From assembly GCA_002418285.1 (NCBI GenBank), contig DIDT01000045.1, forward strand, positions 41,250-105,249: a stretch of 64,000 nt of DNA. The letters are read 5' to 3'. A model generated the notes under the pieces. That model made no database searches and was not told the origin of the DNA. It worked only from the letters and a program-made list of their open reading frames with translations. The DNA comes from Phycisphaerales bacterium UBA5793 (GTDB taxonomy: Bacteria > Planctomycetota > Phycisphaerae > Phycisphaerales > UBA5793). Within the stretch, counting starts at the first letter, position 1. Each line of letters begins with the position of its first letter. The translations under genes and the position numbers were made by a program. Below, one piece after another: positions 19,865 through 31,723 of this stretch.

Positions 19865-22711
19865 CTACGGTTCCTGAAGTTGTTCCAATGTCGCGCGCCA
19901 CTGGGCAGCCTTTACGTCCCAACCAGCGTCTGGCGCAACATCGTGCCAGAATTCGTAGACTTCGACCAGCCGTTCCATCAACCAGGGCCGGCGCTCGGGA
20001 GGGAGGCAGCGCGGCTCGTGCAACATCCCGATGGCGCCAGCAGACCTGTACGGCTCGGCTTCCTCGCACAGCGCCAGGGCGCGCTGGCGATCCGTTGAAA
20101 GCAGCTGCTTCGCCCGCTTGTTCAGCGCGGCTCCGAGATCGGCCATGGCTGTGATCCGCCGAAACGCCTCTTTGTGCCCTTCCGGATAGGCCCGCTCAAC
20201 GATCGCCAGAATCTCGCGTCGCAACGTGATGGCTTCCTCAAAGTCGCTGTCCGCCTCGCGCGAGCCGGCCAGCCACCGAAGTGTCTGTTGCACCGCCCGG
20301 CTGTCCTCGCCCAGCAGTATGCGTTGCTGGTCAAGCGCCTGTCGACAGTACTGCTCGCCTTCATGTCGCCGCCCCTGATGAACGATTTGCGTGCCGATGT
20401 TGAACAAGTCCGTTGCAACGAGGGGATGCTCCTGGCCGTACACGGCGAGGTGGATGGCCATCGCTTCGCGGAAGAGTTCTTCCGCCTCGTCCGGCCGTCC
20501 TTGAGAGCCAACCTCCCAAGCCAGGTTGAAAAGGACATGCGCGACCTTCGGGTGCTGGTCACCGTAATACTCGCGCCGCCACTCGAGGACTCGAAGGTCG
20601 GCGGACTCGGCCTCTTTGTGTCGGTTCTGCTTCGAATACAAGACGGCGAGCGAGGCCAGGTTGCCCATGAAACGTGGATCGTCTTCGCCGTAGAGTTCAC
20701 GGTTGATCTGCAGCGCTTCGTTAAGCCGCGTTTCAGCCTCCGCACCGGCCCGCCTGTCCATAGCGGCGCCTCCCAGATACTCCAGTGCTCTGGCCTCGGC
20801 GCTTCGATTCCCAAGTACGCGCGACATGTCCAACACTTCGAGGCTGATCTCCTCCACTTCGCCGCTGCGTCCCAGGTTCTCCTTGACAAACGCAAGTTGG
20901 AGCAGAGACTCGAGGACAGCAGGGTGGGTTGTCCCGGGTCCATAGTGCGCCCGGCGGAGTTCCAGTGCGGCGCTCAGATGCTGGTCGGCGGCCGCGTAGA
21001 TTCCCAGCTCGCGATAGGTCCGTCCGATGGCTTCGTGAAGTTGCGCCCGCACGAGCGGCTGATCGGCAAACTGCTCCTCAAGAGTGTCCGCAGCCGGGGT
21101 CAGCACGAATTCGTCCATTACCTGTCGGGCAACGTCCACTGCCTGGGCCGCGTCAGCGCGCCTGTCATACTCCGCCAGTTCCTCCTCAATTTCGTCCGGC
21201 GTGAGCTTGCGGCGGTTCGAACCCTCACCGACGTACTGGCGTTGCAGCGCCGCCCCCACCTGTTCGCGGAAGCGCTCCTTGATGCGGAGTCCCATCTCAT
21301 TGGCGTCGATCCCGCGGAGCATTGCGGCCTGGAATTCGGAGACCTGTTGCATTTGCTCCCGCGCCGAATCCGCCTCAGCCCGGCGCTTCTCGGCCCGCAG
21401 CAAGCCAAACGTCGTCCCGGCCGTTCCAGCGAGTAGCGCGACCACCACCATCATCGCTGCGGTAACCATCGTGCGGTTGCGCCGAACGAACTTGCGGAAG
21501 CGGTAGATCCTGCTCGGCGGCGCCGCATCCACTGGCTCGCCGGAGAGGAAGTGCTGCACGTCTGTGGCGAGTTCATGGGCCGTCTCGTAGCGCCGCGCGC
21601 GGTCCTTCTCGAGGCACTTCATCACGATCCAGTCCAACTCACCTTTGACCTGGCGCTGAAGTGCTGCAAACTCGGTGTCACGTCGGCCGGCAATCTCCTG
21701 CGGCGTGGCGCCGTTTCGCTGGTTGACCGGTTCGGCGCCGAGCGTCGACAGGCGGCAGCTGGGTGTCGCCGGCTCCATTTCGCGGATGATCTTCACCAAG
21801 CGGGGGTAATCAGCCTTACGGAGCGCATCAGGCTCGAAGGGCAGCGTGCCGGTCAGGAGTTGATAAAGGATCACACCGAGTGAGTACACGTCGCTGCGCG
21901 TGTCCACGTCCGTGCCGCCGCTGCCAGCCTGTTCGGGGCTCATGTACTCGGGCGTTCCCATCAGCCGGCCAATCTCGGTGTGCAGTGTGCGATCAGTCAG
22001 CGGAACAGCTGTGGCCTTGGCGATGCCGAAGTCGATCACCTTCGGAACTGGCTTGCCGTCTGTGAGGGTGAGGAGGACATTCGAGGGCTTCAGATCACGG
22101 TGGATGATGCCCTTGGTGTGAGCGTGCTGGACGGCCTCGCAAACCCGAACGAACAACTCGAGTCGCTGACGAACTCGTAGTCGACCGGTGTCGCAGTAGT
22201 CGGTGATCGGCAGCCCGGCCGCGTGCTCCATCACAAAGTACGGTCGGCCCTGGTCGGTCGCGCCGGCGTCGTAGATTCGGGCCACATTGGGATGGTCCAT
22301 CAGCGCCAGGGCCTGGCGTTCCATCTCGAAGCGTGCCAGCACTTCCTTGGAGTCCACGCCCAGTTTGAGGATCTTTACTGCGACGGTTCGGTGCATCGGC
22401 TCGGTCTGCTCGGCCGTCCAGACCTCGCCAAAGCCGCCTTCGCCGAGGCGTTCCAAGAGTCGGTAGGGACCAATCTTCCCGCTCGGGTTGGGCCATGATG
22501 GTGCGGGCCGATCGTCAGAGCCGGATGTTGGGCTGGTCAGGAAACCATCGCGCCCTGCGTGGTCGAGCGCATGAAGCAGGCCCTCCACAGAAGAACGCAA
22601 CTCCGGCTGGTCGGTGCAGACCCGGCTCAGGAAAGCCGCACGGCGGTCGGGCGAGAGCTGCATCGCTTCAGCGAAAATCTCCTGGATGCGATCTTGTTCG
22701 CCGCTTTTCAT
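19865..22711 (-). CDS. Ser/Thr protein kinase with a transmembrane segment and C-terminal TPR repeats
   Basis: Kinase motifs present: GEGGFGEVW, VAVKIL, HRDLKPSNVLL, DFGIAK, GTPEYMSPEQ. A long TPR-like C-terminal half follows. The start is set at ATG 22709-22711 (MKSGEQDRIQEIFAEAMQLSPDRRAAFL); the ORF extends to 22834. Confidence 0.9.
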   Translation of the reverse strand: MKSGEQDRIQEIFAEAMQLSPDRRAAFLSRVCTDQPELRSSVEGLLHALDHAGRDGFLTSPTSGSDDRPAPSWPNPSGKIGPYRLLERLGEGGFGEVWTAEQTEPMHRTVAVKILKLGVDSKEVLARFEMERQALALMDHPNVARIYDAGATDQGRPYFVMEHAAGLPITDYCDTGRLRVRQRLELFVRVCEAVQHAHTKGIIHRDLKPSNVLLTLTDGKPVPKVIDFGIAKATAVPLTDRTLHTEIGRLMGTPEYMSPEQAGSGGTDVDTRSDVYSLGVILYQLLTGTLPFEPDALRKADYPRLVKIIREMEPATPSCRLSTLGAEPVNQRNGATPQEIAGRRDTEFAALQRQVKGELDWIVMKCLEKDRARRYETAHELATDVQHFLSGEPVDAAPPSRIYRFRKFVRRNRTMVTAAMMVVVALLAGTAGTTFGLLRAEKRRAEADSAREQMQQVSEFQAAMLRGIDANEMGLRIKERFREQVGAALQRQYVGEGSNRRKLTPDEIEEELAEYDRRADAAQAVDVARQVMDEFVLTPAADTLEEQFADQPLVRAQLHEAIGRTYRELGIYAAADQHLSAALELRRAHYGPGTTHPAVLESLLQLAFVKENLGRSGEVEEISLEVLDMSRVLGNRSAEARALEYLGGAAMDRRAGAEAETRLNEALQINRELYGEDDPRFMGNLASLAVLYSKQNRHKEAESADLRVLEWRREYYGDQHPKVAHVLFNLAWEVGSQGRPDEAEELFREAMAIHLAVYGQEHPLVATDLFNIGTQIVHQGRRHEGEQYCRQALDQQRILLGEDSRAVQQTLRWLAGSREADSDFEEAITLRREILAIVERAYPEGHKEAFRRITAMADLGAALNKRAKQLLSTDRQRALALCEEAEPYRSAGAIGMLHEPRCLPPERRPWLMERLVEVYEFWHDVAPDAGWDVKAAQWRATLEQLQEP

Positions 22712-23315
22712 CTTCCTTACCTGGTGCATGGGTCGGATCGGCCAGTTCCTTATAAAGCCAGGCTCGCGCAAAGGCCCAGTCCAAGTCCACCGTGCGGGCC
22801 GAAACACCCAGTATGCGGGCGGTCTCGTCCACACTCAATCCGGCATAGAACCGCAGGTGAACCACTTGAGCAACGCGCGGCCTCTGACTCTCAAGGCGAC
22901 GCAGAGCGTCATCGAGCGCAATGATCTGCTCAGAATTTTCTTCCCGGGCCAGGTCGGCAACGTCACCAATGTCCAGTGTCAGGCGCCGCTGCGCAGGTCC
23001 CCCCCGCTTCTGGCGTGCGCGGGCGCGTGCGTGCTCGATGAGGATCCGCCGCATCGCTTCGGCGGCGGCGGTGAAGAAGTGGCCGCGGCTGTCCCAGGTG
23101 AGTTCGGCGTTTGCAACAAGCCGGGCGTAGGCCTCATGAACAAGCGCGGTCGCCTGCAGCGTGTGCCCGACTCGCTCTTCGTTCATGCGCTGCTGTGCGA
23201 TCTTGCGCAGTTGATCGTAAACGAGTGTCAGAAGTTGACCCGCATTTTCCGGGCCGACACTGTCCGCGGACTGCAGGAGGCGTGTGACTTCGTGCTCCGG
23301 CACTTCGTCGGGCAT
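22668..23315 (-). CDS. ECF-type RNA polymerase sigma factor (kinase-associated Planctomycete-type family)
   Basis: The translation reads LLTLVYDQLRKIAQQRMNEERVGHTLQATALVHEAYARLV...WDSRGHFFTAAAEAMRRILIEHARAR...VHLRFYAGLSVDETARILGVSARTVDLDWAFARAWL. It overlaps the downstream kinase start by about 44 nt. Confidence 0.85.
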   Translation of the reverse strand: MPDEVPEHEVTRLLQSADSVGPENAGQLLTLVYDQLRKIAQQRMNEERVGHTLQATALVHEAYARLVANAELTWDSRGHFFTAAAEAMRRILIEHARARARQKRGGPAQRRLTLDIGDVADLAREENSEQIIALDDALRRLESQRPRVAQVVHLRFYAGLSVDETARILGVSARTVDLDWAFARAWLYKELADPTHAPGKEDEKRRTRSHPGDFR

Positions 23316-23654
23316 AGTGGGTCACCCCAGTTCCCGGTCCACCCCCAACGCGAGAGATCGACATTTCGTCAGACAGTCATTGTAGCGTGGCTTGGATTGA
23401 TTGTTGAGGAACCGTGGTACCAGAGTGTCGGGTGGTCAGAGCCACCAGAGGACAGTCCTTCATCGCGATTACGGCGCCAGCACATAATTTCGCCGCGCCT
23501 CTCGCAATGGACCTGAACCAATGTTCCATCGCCCACTCGGCACTTAATCAGCAGTTGACTGCCTCAATGAGCCTGACCTCCGTCGGCTCGCCTCGGCGAG
23601 CTGTCAGTTTGCGGTGGCGCCCGGGTGGCAATTCTGTTGGAGGCCCCAAATCCG

Positions 23655-23674
23655 GGCTTGTCTGGGCTTGCCGG
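23655..23674. repeat. two tandem 10-bp units GGCTTGTCTG/GGCTTGCCGG
   Basis: Same vocabulary as 4421-4460. It forms an inverted pair with 23888-23917. It is followed by the tandem GCGCTTTTCC x2 at 23681-23700. Confidence 0.7.
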
Positions 23675-23887
23675 CATGTCGCGCTTTTCCGCGCTTTTCC
23701 TCATTCTGCCGCGCCGGCGGAAGTCGTAAGTCCATAAGTACAATCGTGATAACGACTTGCAGCCGAAACGGGGACCCGCTCATAACCTGGAGGTAGTCGC
23801 TTGCAAGCGCCACAACTGCAAGCACTTACAATTACCTTCCAGGACTAACCCTGGACTGCGGCTTTCCTACCTTAATATGTGCGGTCT

Positions 23888-23917
23888 CGACAAGCCCAAA
23901 CAAGCCCCGGCACGCCC
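23888..23917. repeat. three tandem 10-bp units on the minus strand: GGCGTGCCGG/GGCTTGTTTG/GGCTTGTCGA
   Basis: Read from the reverse complement of caagcccaaacaagccccggcacgcc. Confidence 0.7.
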
Positions 23918-24167
23918 AAGCACAACTGGGGACCCCCATCCGGCCGTTACCACGCGACGTGTCGAGTCTGCAATCACATGCCGAGATCGACCGCGATCGG
24001 TTCCGCGCGGTAGTGAGTGAATTGCGGCGCGATAGCGCGATCCCGCCTATGCATGGCGTCTGGACGCATGCGGTCTCGGCCGGCTCCAAACCAAGCATGC
24101 CAGTGTTCGTTTGCTTCGTTTTTGGAACGATCGTTTGCCACGTCCATGCTCGTCGTGTCTTTCCATC

Positions 24168-27100
24168 TTACCGCACATCGCGCCCGCCGAACAGCGAGTA
24201 GAGTGCTGGGAGGATGAACAGCGTGAGCAGATTGTCCGACAGGATGCCGCCGATGACGACCGTCGCCAGGGGTCGCTGCACCTCGGCGCCGACGCCAGTG
24301 TTGAAGGCCATGGGCACAAAGCCCAGCGCGGCCACCAATCCCGTCATAAGAATCGGCCTCAGGCGAATGAGGCGCGTCTGCTCGATCGCCTCATTGATCG
24401 AAATCCCGGCTGCGAGACGCTGGCGGATCGTCGACACGAGCACCAGTCCCGAGAGCATTGACACACCTGAGACCGCGATGAACCCCACCGCTGCGGAGAT
24501 CGTGAAGTCGAGGTCGCAGATGAGCAGCGCCACGATTCCTCCGAGTATCGCGAAGGGGGCACCTGTCAGCACGAGCAGAGAGTCGACGATACTGCCGATG
24601 CTGAAGTACAGCAGCAGCGCGATGGAAGCAATGACGATCGGGATGATGATGAACAGTCGGCGCGTGGCTCGATCGTAGTGTTCGAACTGCCCGCCGAAGG
24701 ACACGTAGTAGCCGGGCGGCATCGGCACATCAGCGGCAATTCTTTCGCGCGCCTCGGCGACGAAGCCGCCAAGATCGCGGTCGCGCACGTTGGCCTGCAC
24801 GATGGTGCGACGTTTGCCCCACTCTCGATTGATCACGGTCGGGCCATCCACAATGGAAATGCGTGCGAGCCTGGCGAGCGGAAGTCGTCCGCCATCGGAT
24901 GTCGGTACGAGGACTTCGCCGACTGCGTCGGGATCATTGCGGTAACGGTCGGGCAGTTCGAGTGTCAGATCGAATCGGCGCTGCCCGTCGCGCACATGGC
25001 CGATATGTACTTCGCCCAGTGCCGCGACGATTTCCAACACATGCCGTGCTGGTATGCCGTAGCGGGCGATGGCGTCCTGATCGACGCGCACTTCAAGTAC
25101 GGGCGCGCCGGTGATCTGTTCGACTGAAACCGAATCGGCTCCGGGGATCGAATCGACGATCGACTGAACCTGCGAAGCGATCGTCGCGACCTGCTCCAGT
25201 TCATCGCCGAAAACCAGAATGCCGACATCGGCGCGGATCCCCGCGATCATCTCGTTCATGCGCATCTCAATCGGCTGCATCATGATCGCCTTGATGCCGG
25301 GCAGCGACTGCAGATCGGTTGAGATCAGTTCCGACAGTTCGGCCTGCGACGATGCCCGGGTCCATGCTTGGCGCGGCTTGAGCGTGATGAAGATGTCGTT
25401 CTGTTCCAGCCCCATCGGGTCGGTCGCCACGGCCGGCGTTCCGAGACGGGTCCAGATGCGGTCGATCTCGTCGGAGTAGCGGTCGAGCAGGAACCGCTCG
25501 ATTCGAGCGTTGTACTCGACAGACTGGTCAATGGAGACCCCGGCCAGCCGCACGATGTTGGCGACGATCGCTTCTTCGTAAAGGCGTGGAATGAACGCCG
25601 TGCCCAGCCGCGTCGCAAGCGTGGCACCAAAGACGACGGTCAGCACACCGAACCCGGCAACGAGCCAGCGGAAGCGAAGGGCAGCGTGGACAAAGGGCCG
25701 GTAAACCCACTGCATCGCGCGCACAATCCAGTTCTCGCGTTCGTGCACGCGCCGACTGATGATGAGGCTGCACAATACGGGTGTGAGTGTGAGCGAGAAG
25801 ATCAGCGAACTGAGCAGCGCGAATACCACGGTGAGCGCCATGGGGCGAAAGAGTTTCCCTTCGACGCCTTCGAGCAGCAGAATCGGCAGGAAGACGACCA
25901 TGATGATCAATTCACCGAACATCGTCGGCTTGCGCACTTCGATCGAGGCGTCGCGCACGATGTCGAGCACCGGCGTTTTCGCTCCCGCGTCATTGTCGTG
26001 GCCGATCCGGCGGACGCAGTTCTCGACGATGATGACCGAACTGTCCACGACCAGGCCGAAGTCGATGGCGCCAAGGCTGAGCAGACTCGCGGCGACTCCG
26101 AACTGCATCATCATCGAAAACGAAAAGAGCATGGCCAGCGGAATCGCCAGCGCCACGATCAGCCCCGCGCGGAGATTGCCCAGGAACATGAACAGCACGG
26201 CGACGACAAACAGCGCGCCCAGCAGCAGATTCTCGGATACGGTGTAAATGACGTGATCGACGAGATAGGTCCGCCGATAGACGACCTCCACGTCGACGTT
26301 GTCGGGCAGGGATGGCCGAATCTGCTCAAGTCGTTCCGCGAGGCGATTGGTGACTTCATGACTGTTCTCGCCCATGAGCATAAAGCCCAGGCCGAGCACC
26401 ACCTCACCGCGACCCTGTGCGGTCACCGCGCCGCGCCGGATCTCGTGCCCCTCTCGCACCTCTGCCACGTCGGCGACGCGAACGGGCGTGCCGGACTCGG
26501 ATTTGATCACCGCGTTGGCGATCTGCTCCAGCGTCGTGGTCAGCGCCAGACCGTGCACCATCATCGACTCGCCGCCGCGCGTCACCTGTCCGCCGCCCAC
26601 ACTCGCGTTGTTTTTCTCGAGCGCCGCGGCGATCTCATCGAGCGTGAGGTTGAACTTGATTAGTTGGGCCGGTTCGACGATCACTTCGAACTGCTTGACC
26701 AAACCGCCCCACGTATTGACTTCGGCTACGCCGGGCACCTGGCGAAGTTGCGGCGCGATGATCCAATCTTGAGCGGTGGTGAGTTCTGTGAGCGAGGCGG
26801 GGTGTTCACCCTTGCCCACGACGAGATAGTGGAACACCTCGCCAAGTCCCGTCGCCACGGGTCCCATCTCAGGTCGACCGATGCCTTCGGGCAATTCGAT
26901 GCCGCCGAGCCGCTCGTTGATCAACTGTCGAGCGAAGTAAATGTCCGTGCCGTCCTCGAAGGTGACCGTCACCTGCGAGAGGCCGAACTTCGATATCGAT
27001 CGAACGCCGGACAGACCGGGCAGGCCGGAGATGGCGACTTCAACGGGAAAGGTGATCTGCTGCTCAATCTCTTCGGGCGAGAGCGCCGGCGCCACGGTGT

Positions 27101-27254
27101 TGATCTGCACCTGCACCGGCGTCGTGTCAGGAAAAGCGTCGATGGGCAGATGGGCCATCGAATACACGCCCCACGCCACGAACACGAGAGTGCCGAGGAT
27201 GACGAGGAACCGGTGGCGGAGTGACCAGTCGATGATCCAGTTGAGCATGAACAA
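24168..27254 (-). CDS. czcA: heavy-metal-efflux RND transporter, CzcA/CusA family
   Basis: 1028 aa. The N-terminus MLNWIIDWSLRHRFLVILGTLVFVAWGVYSMAHLPIDAFPDTTPVQVQINT is typical of HME-RND pumps. It has 12-TM architecture with two large periplasmic loops and is the last gene of an OMF-adaptor-pump operon. The substrate is not determinable from sequence. Confidence 0.9.
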   Translation of the reverse strand: MFMLNWIIDWSLRHRFLVILGTLVFVAWGVYSMAHLPIDAFPDTTPVQVQINTVAPALSPEEIEQQITFPVEVAISGLPGLSGVRSISKFGLSQVTVTFEDGTDIYFARQLINERLGGIELPEGIGRPEMGPVATGLGEVFHYLVVGKGEHPASLTELTTAQDWIIAPQLRQVPGVAEVNTWGGLVKQFEVIVEPAQLIKFNLTLDEIAAALEKNNASVGGGQVTRGGESMMVHGLALTTTLEQIANAVIKSESGTPVRVADVAEVREGHEIRRGAVTAQGRGEVVLGLGFMLMGENSHEVTNRLAERLEQIRPSLPDNVDVEVVYRRTYLVDHVIYTVSENLLLGALFVVAVLFMFLGNLRAGLIVALAIPLAMLFSFSMMMQFGVAASLLSLGAIDFGLVVDSSVIIVENCVRRIGHDNDAGAKTPVLDIVRDASIEVRKPTMFGELIIMVVFLPILLLEGVEGKLFRPMALTVVFALLSSLIFSLTLTPVLCSLIISRRVHERENWIVRAMQWVYRPFVHAALRFRWLVAGFGVLTVVFGATLATRLGTAFIPRLYEEAIVANIVRLAGVSIDQSVEYNARIERFLLDRYSDEIDRIWTRLGTPAVATDPMGLEQNDIFITLKPRQAWTRASSQAELSELISTDLQSLPGIKAIMMQPIEMRMNEMIAGIRADVGILVFGDELEQVATIASQVQSIVDSIPGADSVSVEQITGAPVLEVRVDQDAIARYGIPARHVLEIVAALGEVHIGHVRDGQRRFDLTLELPDRYRNDPDAVGEVLVPTSDGGRLPLARLARISIVDGPTVINREWGKRRTIVQANVRDRDLGGFVAEARERIAADVPMPPGYYVSFGGQFEHYDRATRRLFIIIPIVIASIALLLYFSIGSIVDSLLVLTGAPFAILGGIVALLICDLDFTISAAVGFIAVSGVSMLSGLVLVSTIRQRLAAGISINEAIEQTRLIRLRPILMTGLVAALGFVPMAFNTGVGAEVQRPLATVVIGGILSDNLLTLFILPALYSLFGGRDVR

Positions 27255-27296
27255 GCTCCGGGCGAAGGCGAGATTCCGGCCTGTTGCAGCAGCGCG

Positions 27297-28799
27297 TTAC
27301 TTCTTGAGGTGGTCAACTTCACAGCAGCCGGCGCCGACTGAGTTCTTGAGGATTTCGTTCTTGAGGATGAAACTGCCGCGGGACACAACCGTGTCGCCGG
27401 CCTCAAGCCCCTGGAGCACCTCATAGTGATCGCCGGCGTCGAACCCCAGCATGAGTCGCACCGGTTGGAACGTCAGCGCATCCGACGCCGATCGTCGAAA
27501 CGCCACGTTGCAGCACCCTTCCCACTGCACCGCTTCCTTTGGAAGCAACAGCGCCGCCCGATCCTCGCCCGCGTTGATGCGGGCGCGACCGAACATGTGC
27601 GCTCGAAGCAACCCACGCGCATTCTCGACCTCGACGCGCGCCCGTAGGGCCCGTGTTCCGGGATCAACGGCCGTGCTGATCCACGTCAGCCGTCCGGGAA
27701 AGACCATGCCCTTCAGTCCATCGAGCATGAGCGTGACCGGCTGGTCAAGGCGCACGGTCGTCAAGTCCAATTCGGCGAGATCCACCATTGCCCACATGGT
27801 GCTCGTATCGGCGATGGTCATGATCGCCTGACCCGACTCGACCACGTCGCCAGCGACCGCCGATCGCTCAATCACCAAGCCATCGAACGCTGCGAGCAGC
27901 TGCAACAAGGGAGACGTGTCACCCTCCGTTTCGACCGCCGCGACCTGCTCGCCGCTCAGGCCGAGGTTGCGCAGCCGCTGCCTGGCTTTGCTCGCCGTGA
28001 TGCGCGCTTCCGCGAGGCGTGTGTTGGCTTCGAGCACTTCGCGTTCGATGCCAACACCCTTGGCGAGCAGGTCCTGCTCGCGCTTCGCATTGGCTTTCCA
28101 CAGTCCCATCAACTCGATCGACTGGAGCAGATCCGATTTAGCGGATCCAAGTTCGGTGGATTCCACGATTGCGAGGGTGTCCCCGGCTCGAACGGTTTCG
28201 CCGAGGTCCCTGAGCACTTCGGTTACGACTCCGGCAGCCCTCGAGGAGACGCGGGCATAGCGGTTCGTGTTGTAAGTGACCTGCGCATTGCGTTCGATGA
28301 CGCGCACGAGCGGCCGAGGCGATACTTGAATGTACTCAAGACCGGCCGCAGCCAACGCCTCCGGTGAAGCGAGCGTTACCGGAGTCGATGACGTGATACA
28401 CCCCAGAGAAGGTTCACGCTGCCAGCGCAATTCCGCGCCGGCCGCAGTGGCGCGCCGTGAGGCGTCTTCACCCGCGTCTGGGTTGCACACCCTGCATTGC
28501 GACTCGGGCGTGTCGTGCTCCTCGCACCAGTCGCCGGCCGCGATGAACGCCGATTTCAGATAGGGCTTGCACTGCACGCACAGCGCCTCGGGCACTCCGT
28601 GCTCCTTGCACATTCCTAGCCTATCGATCCGCGTCGGGTCGCAGAAAGGACACTTGGCCCGATCGACGCCGTGCAGGCATGGTTGCCCATCGATCGCCGG
28701 CTGTTGAGCTGATGCTTGAGAGGTGACGCCAAGCGGGATCGGAGACGTCAGTGCGAGGCCGAGCGCGATGAGTACACACAGACGAAACATCGACATCAT
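27297..28799 (-). CDS. RND efflux periplasmic adaptor (CzcB/CusB, HlyD-fold) with an N-terminal 8-Cys/3-His module
   Basis: ATG 28797-28799 shares ATGA with the upstream stop and is preceded by AGGAGG. It has a signal-like N-terminus MMSMFRLCVLIALGLALT. The lipoyl/barrel regions are typical of adaptors (VSSRAAGVVTEVLRDLGETVRAGDTLAIVES...). Residues about 40-112 form a third copy of the Cys-rich module. Confidence 0.85.
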   Translation of the reverse strand: MMSMFRLCVLIALGLALTSPIPLGVTSQASAQQPAIDGQPCLHGVDRAKCPFCDPTRIDRLGMCKEHGVPEALCVQCKPYLKSAFIAAGDWCEEHDTPESQCRVCNPDAGEDASRRATAAGAELRWQREPSLGCITSSTPVTLASPEALAAAGLEYIQVSPRPLVRVIERNAQVTYNTNRYARVSSRAAGVVTEVLRDLGETVRAGDTLAIVESTELGSAKSDLLQSIELMGLWKANAKREQDLLAKGVGIEREVLEANTRLAEARITASKARQRLRNLGLSGEQVAAVETEGDTSPLLQLLAAFDGLVIERSAVAGDVVESGQAIMTIADTSTMWAMVDLAELDLTTVRLDQPVTLMLDGLKGMVFPGRLTWISTAVDPGTRALRARVEVENARGLLRAHMFGRARINAGEDRAALLLPKEAVQWEGCCNVAFRRSASDALTFQPVRLMLGFDAGDHYEVLQGLEAGDTVVSRGSFILKNEILKNSVGAGCCEVDHLKK

Positions 28800-29422
28800 C
28801 CACCTCCTTCGTTCGAGGAGCGATCGAGATCCGGATTGCACTCCAGGCACTGCGACTCGGGCGTCTCGTGTTCGGCGCACCAATCACCCTTGGCGATGAA
28901 CGCGGCCTTCAAGAAGGGCCGGCACTGCACGCACAGCGCCTCGGCGATCTCGTGTTCTTTGCAGTATCCCGCGGATTCAATCAGCCCCGGAGTGCAGAAC
29001 GGGCACTTCGCCTCCGCGATGCCATGCTCGCAGTCCGCCGCATCCGATCCAAGCGATGCGCCGGTGGGAGCAGCGCCACCGTGTTCGCCGGGCTTCACCT
29101 TCGCAGCCAGGTCGGGGTTGCAGTCGATGCACTGCGATTCCGGCGTGCCGTGTTCCGCACACCAGTCGTCGTTGGCGCGAAACGCGGCGTTGAGGTAGGG
29201 CCGGCACTTGGCGCACAACGCCTCCGCGACGCCATGCTCTCCGCAGAATCCTTCAGCGGCTACCATCGCCGGATTGCAGAACGGGCACTTCTCCTGCTTG
29301 ATCTCGTGTGGGCAGCGACCGTCGGCCGCCTGGTCCCCCGAACCGCCGGATTTCCCGCATCCGATCAGCGCGACCCAAGCGCAGACAGCCAGCAGTGCGA
29401 CACAAATCGAGTTGGTCTTCAT
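28796..29422 (-). CDS. lipoprotein made of two tandem 71-aa Cys/His-rich modules (putative periplasmic metal-binding protein)
   Basis: The signal plus lipobox is MKTNSICVALLAVCAWVALIGC. There are two repeats of C.H.....KCPFC.P.......G.C.EH...EALC..CRP.L.AAF.A..DWCAEH.TPESQC..CNPDL. It sits between the OMF and adaptor genes with 4-nt overlaps on both sides. Confidence 0.8.
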   Translation of the reverse strand: MKTNSICVALLAVCAWVALIGCGKSGGSGDQAADGRCPHEIKQEKCPFCNPAMVAAEGFCGEHGVAEALCAKCRPYLNAAFRANDDWCAEHGTPESQCIDCNPDLAAKVKPGEHGGAAPTGASLGSDAADCEHGIAEAKCPFCTPGLIESAGYCKEHEIAEALCVQCRPFLKAAFIAKGDWCAEHETPESQCLECNPDLDRSSNEGGG

Positions 29423-30930
29423 GGTCGATCCTCCGCCCCGGTCCGGGGCTTGTTGATGATGGGGTTTGATTCCTTCTGCAGTGACGCGCCGTTTCCGGGA
29501 GCGAACACGGTTTCTGGGCCGTCGATGAGTTGAGTGATCCTCGCGCGCGCGGCGGCCACTTCACCGCTGAGTTCCAACGCCGTCGTGCGCGCCTCCGTAA
29601 GTGTGCGCTGAGCATCCAATACGTCAAGAAAGGATGCGTGCCCGCCACGGTATGCCTCGGTGGTCTGCTCGAATGCGTGCGCCGCGGCAGGCAGGATCTG
29701 GTCGCGCACGGAATCCAACTGGGCGCGCGAAGCCTCGTATTCGCCGTGCACCGACGCCAGCGCGCTGAGCAGATCGATCTCCAGCGCCTGTCTCCGCTGC
29801 CGGGCCTGCATGAGCGCATAGCGGCCGGCGAGAATGTCGCCGCGCCGATCGTCCCACAGCGGCAGCGTCACGCCCACGCCGAGTTCATAGACGGCTTCGT
29901 TGCTTTCGCCCCGGTAGCCCACACCGGCGTGGAGGTCGAGGTCGAGAGTGCGTTCGGCTTTGATAGCCTCCAAGCGCGCTTGCGCCACTTCGATTTCTCG
30001 GTCCGCCACCTGCAGCGCCGGATGCTCGTCGCGCAGACGAGCATCGAGCCGGGCCAGATCAAGTGCTTGCGGCGTGGCAAGCAGTGACCCCTCCAGGCGG
30101 CTGACATCCACCGCCACGCCCACGAGTAGTGCCAGTTGCTTGCCCGCGGCCTCCTGTTCCCTGGCCAGGCGCGACCGTTGCAGTCGGATCTGGTACACCT
30201 CAATTTCGGCCTTGGTCACTTCCGTCTGCGGAGCCGCTCGTGCATCGAATCGCGCCTGCGCCGATGCGAGCGTCTGCTCGGCCAACGCGGACAACTCTGC
30301 ATTCAGGCGGTCCGTCTCTCGGATCGTGATCAGGCGGCTGTGCAAAACGTTGATCTCGCCGAATAGTTCTCGCTCCACGAGTTCTATCTGCGCCTCGCTG
30401 ACGGCCTGATCGGCGCGCGCTGCATTCCGCGCCGCATCCAGTCGATTGCCGATCACGATGGGCTGGGTGACGCCGACCATAGTGGAACCCTCGTTGAGCA
30501 CGCCCGGCCCGAACGGGACTTCCTCCGAAGACAGTTCGATCGTGGGGTTGGGGTAGAGCGATGACTGGAGCGCATGGCCCGCCGCGACCCCCACACCGCT
30601 GCGCGCGGCTGCCAGACGCGGATTGAGCCGTCTGGCCGAACTCCACAGATCAGCGAGTTGGATCGGACCCTCAGCCGGGAGTCCGACCTCGGCAGCCGCC
30701 GCAAGCGCGGAGTCCCGGCTCGCAACTTGGTCCGGGGCAGGCACACCGAGATGCGCCAAGTCTGCAACAGTTTGCCACTCAGACTCACTTGCGTCCAATT
30801 GAATTGCGGCACAGGAGCAGAGCGCTGCACTCACAGCCAGAGCCGCGACTGCACCGGCAAACGGCAAGTACCATACTGATTTCGACACACGCAACCTCCG
30901 GGTCTGGCACGTTGGACCGCCGCAGGCCAT
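29419..30930 (-). CDS. outer-membrane efflux protein (TolC/CzcC family)
   Basis: 503 aa with a two-fold repeated alpha-helical / beta-barrel OMF pattern (LNPRLAAARSGVGVAAGHALQSSLYPNPTIELS...; LEIDLLSALASVHGEYEASRAQL...). It is the first large gene of the efflux operon. The exact start is uncertain (ATG 30930 or an internal GTG before SKSVWYLPFAGAVAALAV). Confidence 0.8.
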   Translation of the reverse strand: MACGGPTCQTRRLRVSKSVWYLPFAGAVAALAVSAALCSCAAIQLDASESEWQTVADLAHLGVPAPDQVASRDSALAAAAEVGLPAEGPIQLADLWSSARRLNPRLAAARSGVGVAAGHALQSSLYPNPTIELSSEEVPFGPGVLNEGSTMVGVTQPIVIGNRLDAARNAARADQAVSEAQIELVERELFGEINVLHSRLITIRETDRLNAELSALAEQTLASAQARFDARAAPQTEVTKAEIEVYQIRLQRSRLAREQEAAGKQLALLVGVAVDVSRLEGSLLATPQALDLARLDARLRDEHPALQVADREIEVAQARLEAIKAERTLDLDLHAGVGYRGESNEAVYELGVGVTLPLWDDRRGDILAGRYALMQARQRRQALEIDLLSALASVHGEYEASRAQLDSVRDQILPAAAHAFEQTTEAYRGGHASFLDVLDAQRTLTEARTTALELSGEVAAARARITQLIDGPETVFAPGNGASLQKESNPIINKPRTGAEDRP

Positions 30931-31006
30931 AGCCGCCCGCGCACCGTGCAGGAATACTCGCGACTGCGGCGCGAGCGTTCGCGAACCTCTTGGAGTGTTG
31001 CGAGAA

Positions 31007-31471
31007 CTAGATGCGCAGCACCGTACGCATCATCAAAGGAGAGCGCTTGTGTGCCGCCACATGGCCGGCAGGACCGATCGCGGCGGGAGCGACCGGCGGA
31101 CTCTGGTCCTTCGACTGCACCTGCCAGAGTGTCGGCCCGCAATCCAGGTTTGCCGTCCGATGGATGTTGGACTTCGCCGAATGAAGCACAAAGTGCCGCC
31201 CGTGCGGAACCAGATTCAGATCGATGCAGCCACAATCAACGGGAGCATGCGCTGCACCGTAACTATTTTGCCGACCGTCCGAGTCGACGTTACTCTTTTG
31301 CTCGCCACAGCAATCTTCAACGGCGGAGCAAGCCGCAGAAGTCATGCGAATGCCAGCGCGAACATCCCGGCAGCCAATGCACAGAATGCCGCCCGAAGAC
31401 GCGGCCACGGTCTGCACAAGCACGCAGATCAGTGCGACCCAAGGAGCATGCTTTGACGCCGCGCGACTCAT
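31007..31471 (-). CDS. small Cys/His-rich membrane-anchored or secreted protein upstream of the efflux operon (hypothetical)
   Basis: Internal ATG at 31469-31471 of ORF 31007..31729 gives 154 aa: MSRAASKHAPWVALICVLVQTVAASSGGILCIGC...CSAVEDCCGE...HAPVDCGCIDL...H. It is co-directional with the OMF gene and ends 76 nt upstream of its start. The RBS is weak and I recognised no family. Confidence 0.35.
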   Translation of the reverse strand: MSRAASKHAPWVALICVLVQTVAASSGGILCIGCRDVRAGIRMTSAACSAVEDCCGEQKSNVDSDGRQNSYGAAHAPVDCGCIDLNLVPHGRHFVLHSAKSNIHRTANLDCGPTLWQVQSKDQSPPVAPAAIGPAGHVAAHKRSPLMMRTVLRI

Positions 31472-31723
31472 TTCAGGCAACCCACGTAGTTCGGTATCGT
31501 CGCACGAGTCTAGGGGCCAGGTGCCCAGATGGCCATGCGTCGGAGTCGCACGCAACACGAGGACTGCCCAACCTGGACGAAGAGAGTACGAAGCGCCAGT
31601 GTCCGAGTTGGCCTCCTTCTGGCCTCGGGTTCGAAATGAGCGGACCCCGCAAAAGGGACCGAGGATCGAATCCGAGCAGCGAGTAAGAGGCGTTCGGTTG
31701 ATCCCGAGAGCGTCAGTCGCTAT

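Follow-up and report, generated by a model that had tools for sequence, protein, structure and literature searches.

A three-knuckle Cys/His module in the lipoprotein and adaptor of a heavy-metal RND efflux operon: a candidate periplasmic metal-handling domain

Accessory metal-binding proteins determine what heavy-metal efflux pumps of the resistance-nodulation-division (RND) type see, and at what rate, and to our knowledge only the methionine-based CusF, CusB and SilB are understood in detail among them. CusF binds Cu(I)/Ag(I) at a Met/His(Trp) site on an OB-like beta-barrel. Atx1/CopZ and the HMA domains of P1B-ATPases share one cytoplasmic fold, ferredoxin-like with the order beta-alpha-beta-beta-alpha-beta and one GMxCxxC site, and the chaperones pass copper on to the HMA domains by thiolate exchange. 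Here, we describe a 71-residue module rich in cysteine and histidine that is encoded three times in an RND efflux operon of Phycisphaerales bacterium UBA5793 (Planctomycetota; GenBank assembly GCA_002418285.1), twice in a small putative lipoprotein and once at the N-terminus of the CzcB-type adaptor. The operon lies in a stretch of 64,000 nucleotides of contig DIDT01000045.1 (positions 41,250 to 105,249 of the forward strand), hereafter called the window, whose first letter is position 1 of all coordinates given below. Functionally, the module is plausibly an operon-encoded periplasmic metal-handling accessory of heavy-metal efflux RND (HME-RND) pumps, a component of known type built on an undescribed domain.

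In the CusF/CusB/SilB systems, a small periplasmic metal-binding unit encoded in a heavy-metal RND operon captures the substrate and hands it on (PMC4446572). The module resembles these units in being an operon-encoded domain with two forms, one free-standing and one tethered to the adaptor, with capture and hand-off as its proposed role, and the SilB fragment 5a4g was among the PDB matches of the window adaptor. It differs from them in its hairpin-turn-loop knuckles and two helices, in its Cys3His ligand sets and in its position at the adaptor N-terminus, whereas the CusF-like domain of SilB is C-terminal; the window pump, unlike CusA, also lacks the Met triad. As with Atx1/CopZ and the HMA domains, a standalone protein is paired with a partner bearing the same domain (knuckle protein and knuckle-bearing adaptor in 51 of 81 loci), but the module is apparently periplasmic, has three predicted sites and includes His among the ligands. 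The closest solved pump and adaptor core, together with the Asp/Asp/Glu proton-relay residues of transmembrane helix 4 (TM4), are found in ZneCAB of Cupriavidus metallidurans (ZneA, 4k0e; ZneB, 3lnn); ZneB, however, has neither a Cys-rich N-terminal module nor the QWEGCC and GAGCC cysteine motifs of the adaptor described below.

Structure and novelty of the module

The three copies lie on the minus strand at the positions given in an earlier note on this DNA, and two further elements of that description were borne out, namely a lipoprotein made of a signal, a lipobox and two tandem modules, and a third module forming the N-terminus of the adaptor. They belong to four closely packed minus-strand genes (24168-30930) for an outer-membrane factor (OMF), the lipoprotein, the CzcB-type adaptor and a CusA/CzcA-family RND pump (Table 1), among which the two 4-nt overlaps claimed in the note are present: ATGA joins the OMF stop to the lipoprotein start at 29419-29422 and the lipoprotein stop to the adaptor start at 28796-28799 (ATG at 28799), in a translationally coupled operon. 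The adaptor Shine-Dalgarno sequence (GGAGG; 28800-28810, minus strand) sits in the final lipoprotein codons (N-E-G-G-G), and since these codons encode it, the SNEGGG C-terminus kept in the closest lipoprotein relatives may reflect a constraint on the ribosome-binding site rather than protein function.

Over their 71 residues the modules are 56-65% identical pairwise without gaps, and copy 1 matched copy 3 in BLASTP with E=3e-30, far beyond chance. At the DNA level identity was 66-71%, falling to 54-58% at third codon positions, which rules out a recent DNA repeat as the source of the copies and indicates old duplicates kept by protein-level selection. Each module consists of three knuckles of the form C-x(1,2)-H-x6-C-x2-C-x-P, so that nine knuckles are found in the window (regular expression C.{1,2}H.{6}C..C.P). 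With three Cys and one His per knuckle at fixed spacing, a module holds nine Cys and three His, or three Cys3His sets; the note had spoken of an 8-Cys/3-His module, of which the three His stood, whereas nine Cys were counted, as they are in its own consensus string. The knuckle sub-repeat goes beyond that earlier description and leads from the Cys/His residues to a definite prediction, three Cys3His sites per module, the clustering into sites being suggested by the residue pattern.

Conservation followed the knuckles closely. Across 63 diverse modules from many lineages (pairwise identity below 72%), which were used for conservation and for the Pfam scan, the invariant columns were solely the nine Cys, the three His, G24, E33 and W53. 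In an alignment of the lipoprotein with 119 homologues of about 200-220 residues (120 sequences, from the best 120 of 427), all putative ligand Cys and His were invariant, as was His114 in the linker between modules 1 and 2. This linker carries a conserved [KR]-P-G-E-H-G motif, at which AlphaFold2 placed a short strand. The number of knuckles per protein ranged from 1 to 9 and included the odd numbers 3, 5, 7 and 9; as the number varies so freely, each knuckle looks like an autonomous unit.

The AlphaFold2 model of the lipoprotein had a mean predicted local distance difference test (pLDDT) score of 85, with both modules above 90 and a disordered linker, and module 2 modelled alone reached a pLDDT of 97.1 and a predicted template modelling score of 0.83. 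In these models a knuckle starts with a beta-hairpin, on which the first Cys and the His sit, and continues through a one-turn helix into a CxxC-x-P loop; two longer helices join the knuckles.

At the N-terminus of the lipoprotein a hydrophobic stretch leads into the lipobox L-I-G-C (MKTNSICVALLAVCAWVALIG-C22), which conforms to the bacterial lipoprotein pattern (hydrophobic signal followed by [LVI][ASTVI][GAS]C), and the protein is thus predicted to be lipid-anchored. A lipobox-like motif was present in 97 of the 120 best-listed homologues, and Cys22 was invariant in the alignment. Knuckles followed an N-terminal hydrophobic signal or anchor in 348 of 378 family proteins, which suggests that the modules are periplasmic. 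Export of a prefolded metalloprotein by the twin-arginine translocation (Tat) pathway was rejected, as no RR motif occurs in the window proteins and a Tat motif was found in only 5 of the 378. Attachment of c-type haem was likewise rejected, since none of the nine window knuckles contains CxxCH and the string is not conserved in relatives. In knuckle 3 of module 1, CxxC is followed by Asn in 58 of the 120 best-listed lipoproteins and by His in 56, so that an incidental, haem-c-like CxxCH string appears in about half of them, the window having Asn throughout.

Searches for a known family gave no match. Pfam and NCBIfam scans of the lipoprotein, of a single module and of the 63 modules yielded nothing at threshold, so that no match to a characterised family was available to speak against novelty, and the claim that the module is distinct from CusF, HMA and YHS/heavy-metal-binding (HMBD) domains was upheld. 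CusF (CusF_Ec) was not matched even at E<=1 by any of these three queries, the predicted fold is not a beta-barrel and no Met is conserved, all of which place the module outside the CusF family; HMA (PF00403) had no match in the Pfam scans. As for HMBD and YHS (PF19335 and PF04945), HMBD touched 3 of the 63 modules with a best E of 0.056, far short of the cut-off, and the Y.CPMHP-type motif is absent. Sequence searches of the PDB with the protein and with the 63-sequence profile returned noise only (E>=0.55, the copper ATPase 2kmv standing at E=0.55), and Foldseek found 0 matches of the lipoprotein model in the PDB.

The closest Pfam resemblances were sub-threshold zinc-finger models, above all the Trim66 B-box (26 of 63 modules; best E 1.8e-4, below cut-off), with weak sub-threshold matches to double-zinc-ribbon models as well. 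Membership in the classical zinc-finger families (B-box, zinc ribbon, double zinc ribbon and C2HC) was rejected, for neither a gathering score nor a fold match was obtained. The knuckle does resemble small zinc fingers (zinc knuckle, treble clef, B-box and zinc ribbon) in packing four ligands into about 16 residues, two of them in C-x2-C and two on a hairpin, but differs in its C-H-C-C order, its x6 spacing, the Pro after the last Cys and its predicted periplasmic location. Zinc-finger families are overwhelmingly intracellular. The literature searched contained no description of the module and no mention of the string PESQC, and homologues are named "hypothetical protein" or generic "membrane fusion protein" in databases. 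By these sequence and fold comparisons, the module is an undescribed domain with no matching known family.

Distribution, partner proteins and likely substrate

Searching 1.84 billion cluster representatives (50% identity) with a three-module profile yielded 627 proteins at E<=1e-3, of which 307 reached E<=1e-10. They were of two types, standalone proteins of about 100-230 aa and CzcB-type adaptors carrying 2-9 N-terminal knuckles after a signal or anchor; all eight long matches submitted to a Pfam scan were HlyD_D23 adaptors. In one protein of 576 aa (P0149), a three-knuckle module and an extra knuckle lie at residues ~330-460, inside the beta-barrel/membrane-proximal region rather than at the N-terminus. 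A taxon survey on contigs, with one genome per species, found the module in Planctomycetota (mostly Phycisphaerae), Acidobacteriota, Desulfuromonadales/Geobacter, candidate phyla, Bdellovibrionales, Bradymonadales and, among Myxococcota, in Polyangiaceae, Kofleriaceae, Nannocystaceae, Haliangium and Anaeromyxobacter. The two-knuckle version of the lipoprotein alone accounts for more than 2100 clusters at 90% identity, including proteins of Sorangium cellulosum So ce56 and Chondromyces crocatus.

The earlier note had proposed that the occurrence of the module be compared with that of HME-RND operons, and this comparison bore out the operon setting: in 82 of 84 loci the module either sat directly upstream of a CzcB core or formed one protein with it, and in 79 of the 84 CzcA came next, the loci that departed from the pattern being on short or truncated stretches. 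No multidrug RND system or other adaptor type with the module was seen among the loci and proteins examined. Standalone and adaptor-fused knuckles occurred together in 51 of the 81 evaluable loci, across phyla, while 14 loci had the standalone form only and 16 the fusion only; the standalone proteins consist of a signal and knuckles and nothing else.

The window adaptor is a CzcB-like RND adaptor by TIGR01730 (136.4 bits against a cut-off of 94.9) and HlyD_D23 (E=2.8e-47), with ZneB as the closest solved structure (E=5.5e-27), whereas TIGR00999 (CzcB/NccB) remained below its cut-off (126 against 319), which points to a distinct subfamily. Its N-terminus is signal-like and ends in ASA|QQ, and its C-terminal end reads GAGCCEVDHLKK. 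Two pairs of adjacent cysteines mark this protein. QWEGCC, in the membrane-proximal part, is shared by close relatives and recurs in 31 of the 56 long adaptors that bear modules, the aligned residues of ZneB being Phe-Tyr. A GCC end (IGAGCC[ED]) was found in 76 of 81 module-adjacent adaptors, with GAGCAD in the other five, and six further adaptors of the same loci had neither knuckles nor a GAGCC-type tail. Some knuckle-free adaptors of these loci end in His-rich tails (AAHEH, EAHHDH). Each RND pump is served by six adaptors. As the membrane-proximal adaptor domain is built of C-terminal elements and an N-terminal strand (PMC4446572), the N-terminal module and the C-terminal tail would leave the same domain, beside the periplasmic entrance of the pump.

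In 17 of the 37 non-Planctomycete loci whose flanks were long enough, the operon was adjoined by a gene for a TlpA/ResA-like thioredoxin, N-terminally anchored in the membrane and with WCPPC as active site. The gene was found directly after czcA (loci L036, L038, L042, L043, L045, L048-L050, L053, L055, L056, L058, L061, L064, L078 and L080) or just before the adaptor gene (L070 and L073), and a CcdA/DsbD-like-thioredoxin fusion lay upstream in L059. On plasmid pK2D_1, a lipoprotein thioredoxin (WCQPC; L085, 10235-10681) lies between cadA and czcD, in a metal island where a two-knuckle lipoprotein and a knuckle-bearing czcB stand next to it. This linkage argues for a need to maintain the module cysteines in reduced form in the periplasm. 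TlpA, which reduces ScoI/CoxB, provides a precedent for keeping the cysteines of metal chaperones reduced. As in TlpA/ResA/ScsD-type systems, an anchored WCxxC thioredoxin would thus be encoded beside a thiol-based periplasmic metal protein, but the link here is confined to some members (17 of 37 non-Planctomycete loci, plus one plasmid); in the 64 kb of the window no thioredoxin or DsbD-like gene was found at E<=1e-4. The metal-resistance island of pK2D_1 also encodes two small Cys-rich hypothetical proteins (L085, 1294-1707 and 7210-7461), between czcC and czcB and after the knuckle lipoprotein, one with CPCPCDTGCVC and the other with CMCGC, whose sequences are unrelated to the knuckle module.

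The window pump exceeds the TIGR00914 cut-off and has two Asp and one Glu in TM4, as HME-RND pumps do. The TM4 consensus of HME1/HME2 pumps is DFG-x3-DGA-x3-VEN, and the two Asp and the Glu mark pumps for divalent cations (PMC3637150). In the window pump, DSS takes the place of DGA (DFG-x3-DSS-x3-VEN), a difference that also separates it from ZneA. Partner pumps share DFGL[VI]VDSSVI.VEN in TM4, ATDPMG.E..D and QPIEMR.NEM.AG, including Met614, Met664 and Met669; these motifs were kept in 69 module-associated pumps, were absent from five control pumps of the same loci and recurred in two Planctomycete plasmid systems, which suggests that the partner pumps form a distinct, dedicated clade.

Among PDB entries, ZneA was closest to the pump (628 bits), followed by CusA (580 bits). 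A CusA-type Cu(I)/Ag(I) pump was rejected because the CusA triad Met573/Met623/Met672 aligned to Asn/Gln/Glu. Of the ZneA proximal site, which we take to be D602, E610, D654 and D658, three positions aligned to carboxylates in the window pump (D602 to Asp, E610 to Asp and D658 to Glu), whereas D654 aligned to Met. Our best guess at the substrate is a divalent, probably thiophilic cation of the Zn/Cd/Co type, a reading to which the TM4 Asp/Asp/Glu, ZneA as the closest pump, the three ZneA positions aligned to carboxylates, the lack of the CusA triad and cadA and czcD on pK2D_1 point.

Proposed metal hand-off and its alternatives

It is probable that the knuckles bind metal. The module could then work as follows. 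One metal would be held per knuckle in tetrahedral Cys3His coordination, so that a module would carry three metals, the lipoprotein six and each adaptor protomer three. The lipoprotein would be exported unfolded through Sec and lipid-anchored, and would act as a mobile or membrane-tethered carrier that collects thiophilic divalent metal in the periplasm. It would dock on the homologous N-terminal module of the adaptor, where metal would pass by thiolate ligand exchange between like domains; the GAGCC tail, and perhaps the QWEGCC pair, in the same membrane-proximal domain would deliver it to the Met/carboxylate cleft of CzcA, and the CzcA-clade pump would expel it through the OMF.

This complete relay, a Cys3His array with the lipoprotein as carrier and the adaptor as tethered acceptor for a divalent-metal pump, is in our judgement about as probable as its negation. 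The broader statement, that a novel periplasmic Cys3His fold defines an unrecognised multi-phylum RND class with an all-thiolate relay, often kept reduced by thioredoxin, as a counterpart of Atx1/HMA, is put forward tentatively, and we lean slightly against its holding in every part. Capture and hand-off of metal, already proposed in the earlier note, is nevertheless the function that we favour over its rivals, with circumstantial backing from the paired copies, from the GAGCC tail and from the thioredoxin linked in Myxococcota. We infer metal binding, the identity of the metal, its transfer and the direction of transfer from sequence.

Several points weigh against this reading. The fused copy is missing from 14 loci and the standalone copy from 16, and hence the two steps of the relay are not both required. 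No linked thioredoxin was found in the 29 Planctomycetota genome loci, and the periplasm is oxidising. The three conserved pump Met could also suit softer ions, the substrate being a guess. Cys3His sites usually hold Zn very tightly and are typically structural, and release to the Met/carboxylate site of the pump would be thermodynamically uphill unless ligand exchange or the pump drives it.

This last difficulty leads to the main open rival, a structural zinc scaffold such as the note gave as its alternative, in which a permanent metal would serve folding and the module would be a rigid spacer or docking unit that does not handle substrate. Such a scaffold may join lipoprotein to adaptor like-with-like, fix where the pump stands with respect to the outer membrane, or aid hexamerisation of the adaptor. 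Cys3His is a classic ligand set of structural zinc, the compact fold is predicted very confidently, the sole and very weak resemblances are to the B-box and the double zinc ribbon, and the number of knuckles (2-9) varies as that of a spacer would. Standalone lipoproteins, however, are made of modules only, so that the modules themselves must carry the function, and the thiol tail, the single pump clade and the occurrence with heavy-metal pumps only, in the set examined, fit substrate handling more naturally; we thus consider a purely structural role unlikely.

A second alternative is a metal buffer or sensor-switch, whose knuckles would be unfolded or oxidised at low metal, would fold as metal rises and would either soak up the excess near the pump entrance, as a metallothionein does, or activate the adaptor without passing anything on. 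Export through Sec, after which the domain must acquire its metal in the periplasm, is compatible with it, as is the large number of sites per pump, given up to nine knuckles per adaptor and six adaptors. ZneB and CusB are reported to change conformation on metal binding, and CusB to activate CusA (PMC4446572), which counts in the same direction. A buffer, on the other hand, has no need of a dedicated adaptor tail or of a strictly conserved pump clade, and a sensor has no need of a separate lipoprotein with the same domain, as found in 51 of 81 loci. Although we regard this alternative as distinctly improbable, a buffer or folding switch and a hand-off domain are indistinguishable from sequence data.

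A metal-free domain knotted by structural disulfides, with some other binding function, would suit the oxidising periplasm, where exported Cys-rich domains are often disulfide-bonded, and the lack of a linked reductase in the window or any of the 29 Planctomycetota genome loci examined, but it is very improbable, as the single His of a knuckle is conserved as strictly as its Cys, as disulfides alone cannot pair every invariant Cys when knuckles have three Cys each and occur in odd numbers, and as a TlpA-like thioredoxin accompanies 17 of 37 non-Planctomycete loci and a CcdA/DsbD-like fusion one locus.

Locus map and wider meaning

The coordinates of the operon, of the modules and of the motifs discussed above are given in Table 1.

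Table 1. Features of the knuckle-module operon; positions are those of the window.
Feature	Position	Strand	Detail
Outer-membrane factor (CzcC/TolC-like)	29419..30930	-	First gene of the operon; Pfam OEP PF02321 E=1.4e-42
Lipoprotein	28796..29422	-	Open reading frame, 208 aa: signal/lipobox (residues 1-22), module 1, PGEHG linker, module 2
Module 1	29108..29320	-	Lipoprotein residues 35-105; knuckles 29270-29314, 29198-29245, 29114-29161
Linker motif P-G-E-H-G	29078..29092	-	Lipoprotein residues 111-115; His114 invariant, G112/G115 at least 90% conserved (120-sequence alignment)
Module 2	28826..29038	-	Lipoprotein residues 129-199; knuckles 28988-29032, 28916-28963, 28832-28879
Adaptor (membrane fusion protein), CzcB-type	27297..28799	-	500 aa: signal-like N-terminus, module 3, core, Cys-Cys motifs
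Module 3	28473..28685	-	Adaptor residues 39-109; knuckles 28635-28679, 28563-28610, 28479-28526
Cys429-Cys430 in QWEGCC	27510..27515	-	Membrane-proximal part of the adaptor
C-terminal tail G-A-G-C-C-E-V-D-H	27309..27335	-	Adaptor residues 489-497
CzcA-type heavy-metal RND pump	24168..27254	-	TIGR00914 1154 bits, cut-off 701
Pump TM4 motif DFGLVVDSSVIIVEN	26019-26063	-	Clade-specific
Pump motif ATDPMGLEQND	25395-25427	-	Clade-specific
Pump motif QPIEMRMNEM	25248-25277	-	Clade-specific

The operon is flanked by two regions of about 800 bp each (23316-24167 and 30931-31723) without a convincing open reading frame. An Rfam scan of the window found no family, and a promoter and terminator scan gave signals at chance level only. 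Downstream of the pump, a 989-aa open reading frame (19865-23315, minus strand) resembles, as judged by eye from its translation, a Ser/Thr protein kinase with repeats like those of tetratricopeptide proteins, and an adjoining 215-aa frame resembles, on the same footing, a sigma factor of the extracytoplasmic function type; nothing in these translations, read by eye only, ties either of them to the efflux operon.

Compared with CusF, CusB and SilB, the knuckle system appears to be a second answer to the same task, one that differs in fold and chemistry: it would place thiolate/imidazole sites in a compartment, the oxidising periplasm, in which zinc-finger-like Cys sites are rare. The linked thioredoxin suggests a need for redox maintenance in periplasmic metal handling. 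The system extends over thousands of sequence clusters in several phyla, Bdellovibrionota among them, which are annotated as "hypothetical" or absorbed into "CzcB", and the knuckles, the GAGCC tail and the DSS pump motif provide a marker set for annotating a distinct pump clade. It makes a testable prediction, three metals per 71-residue module, and a domain so small and so confidently folded may be of use as a metal-binding tag or as a part of a biosensor.

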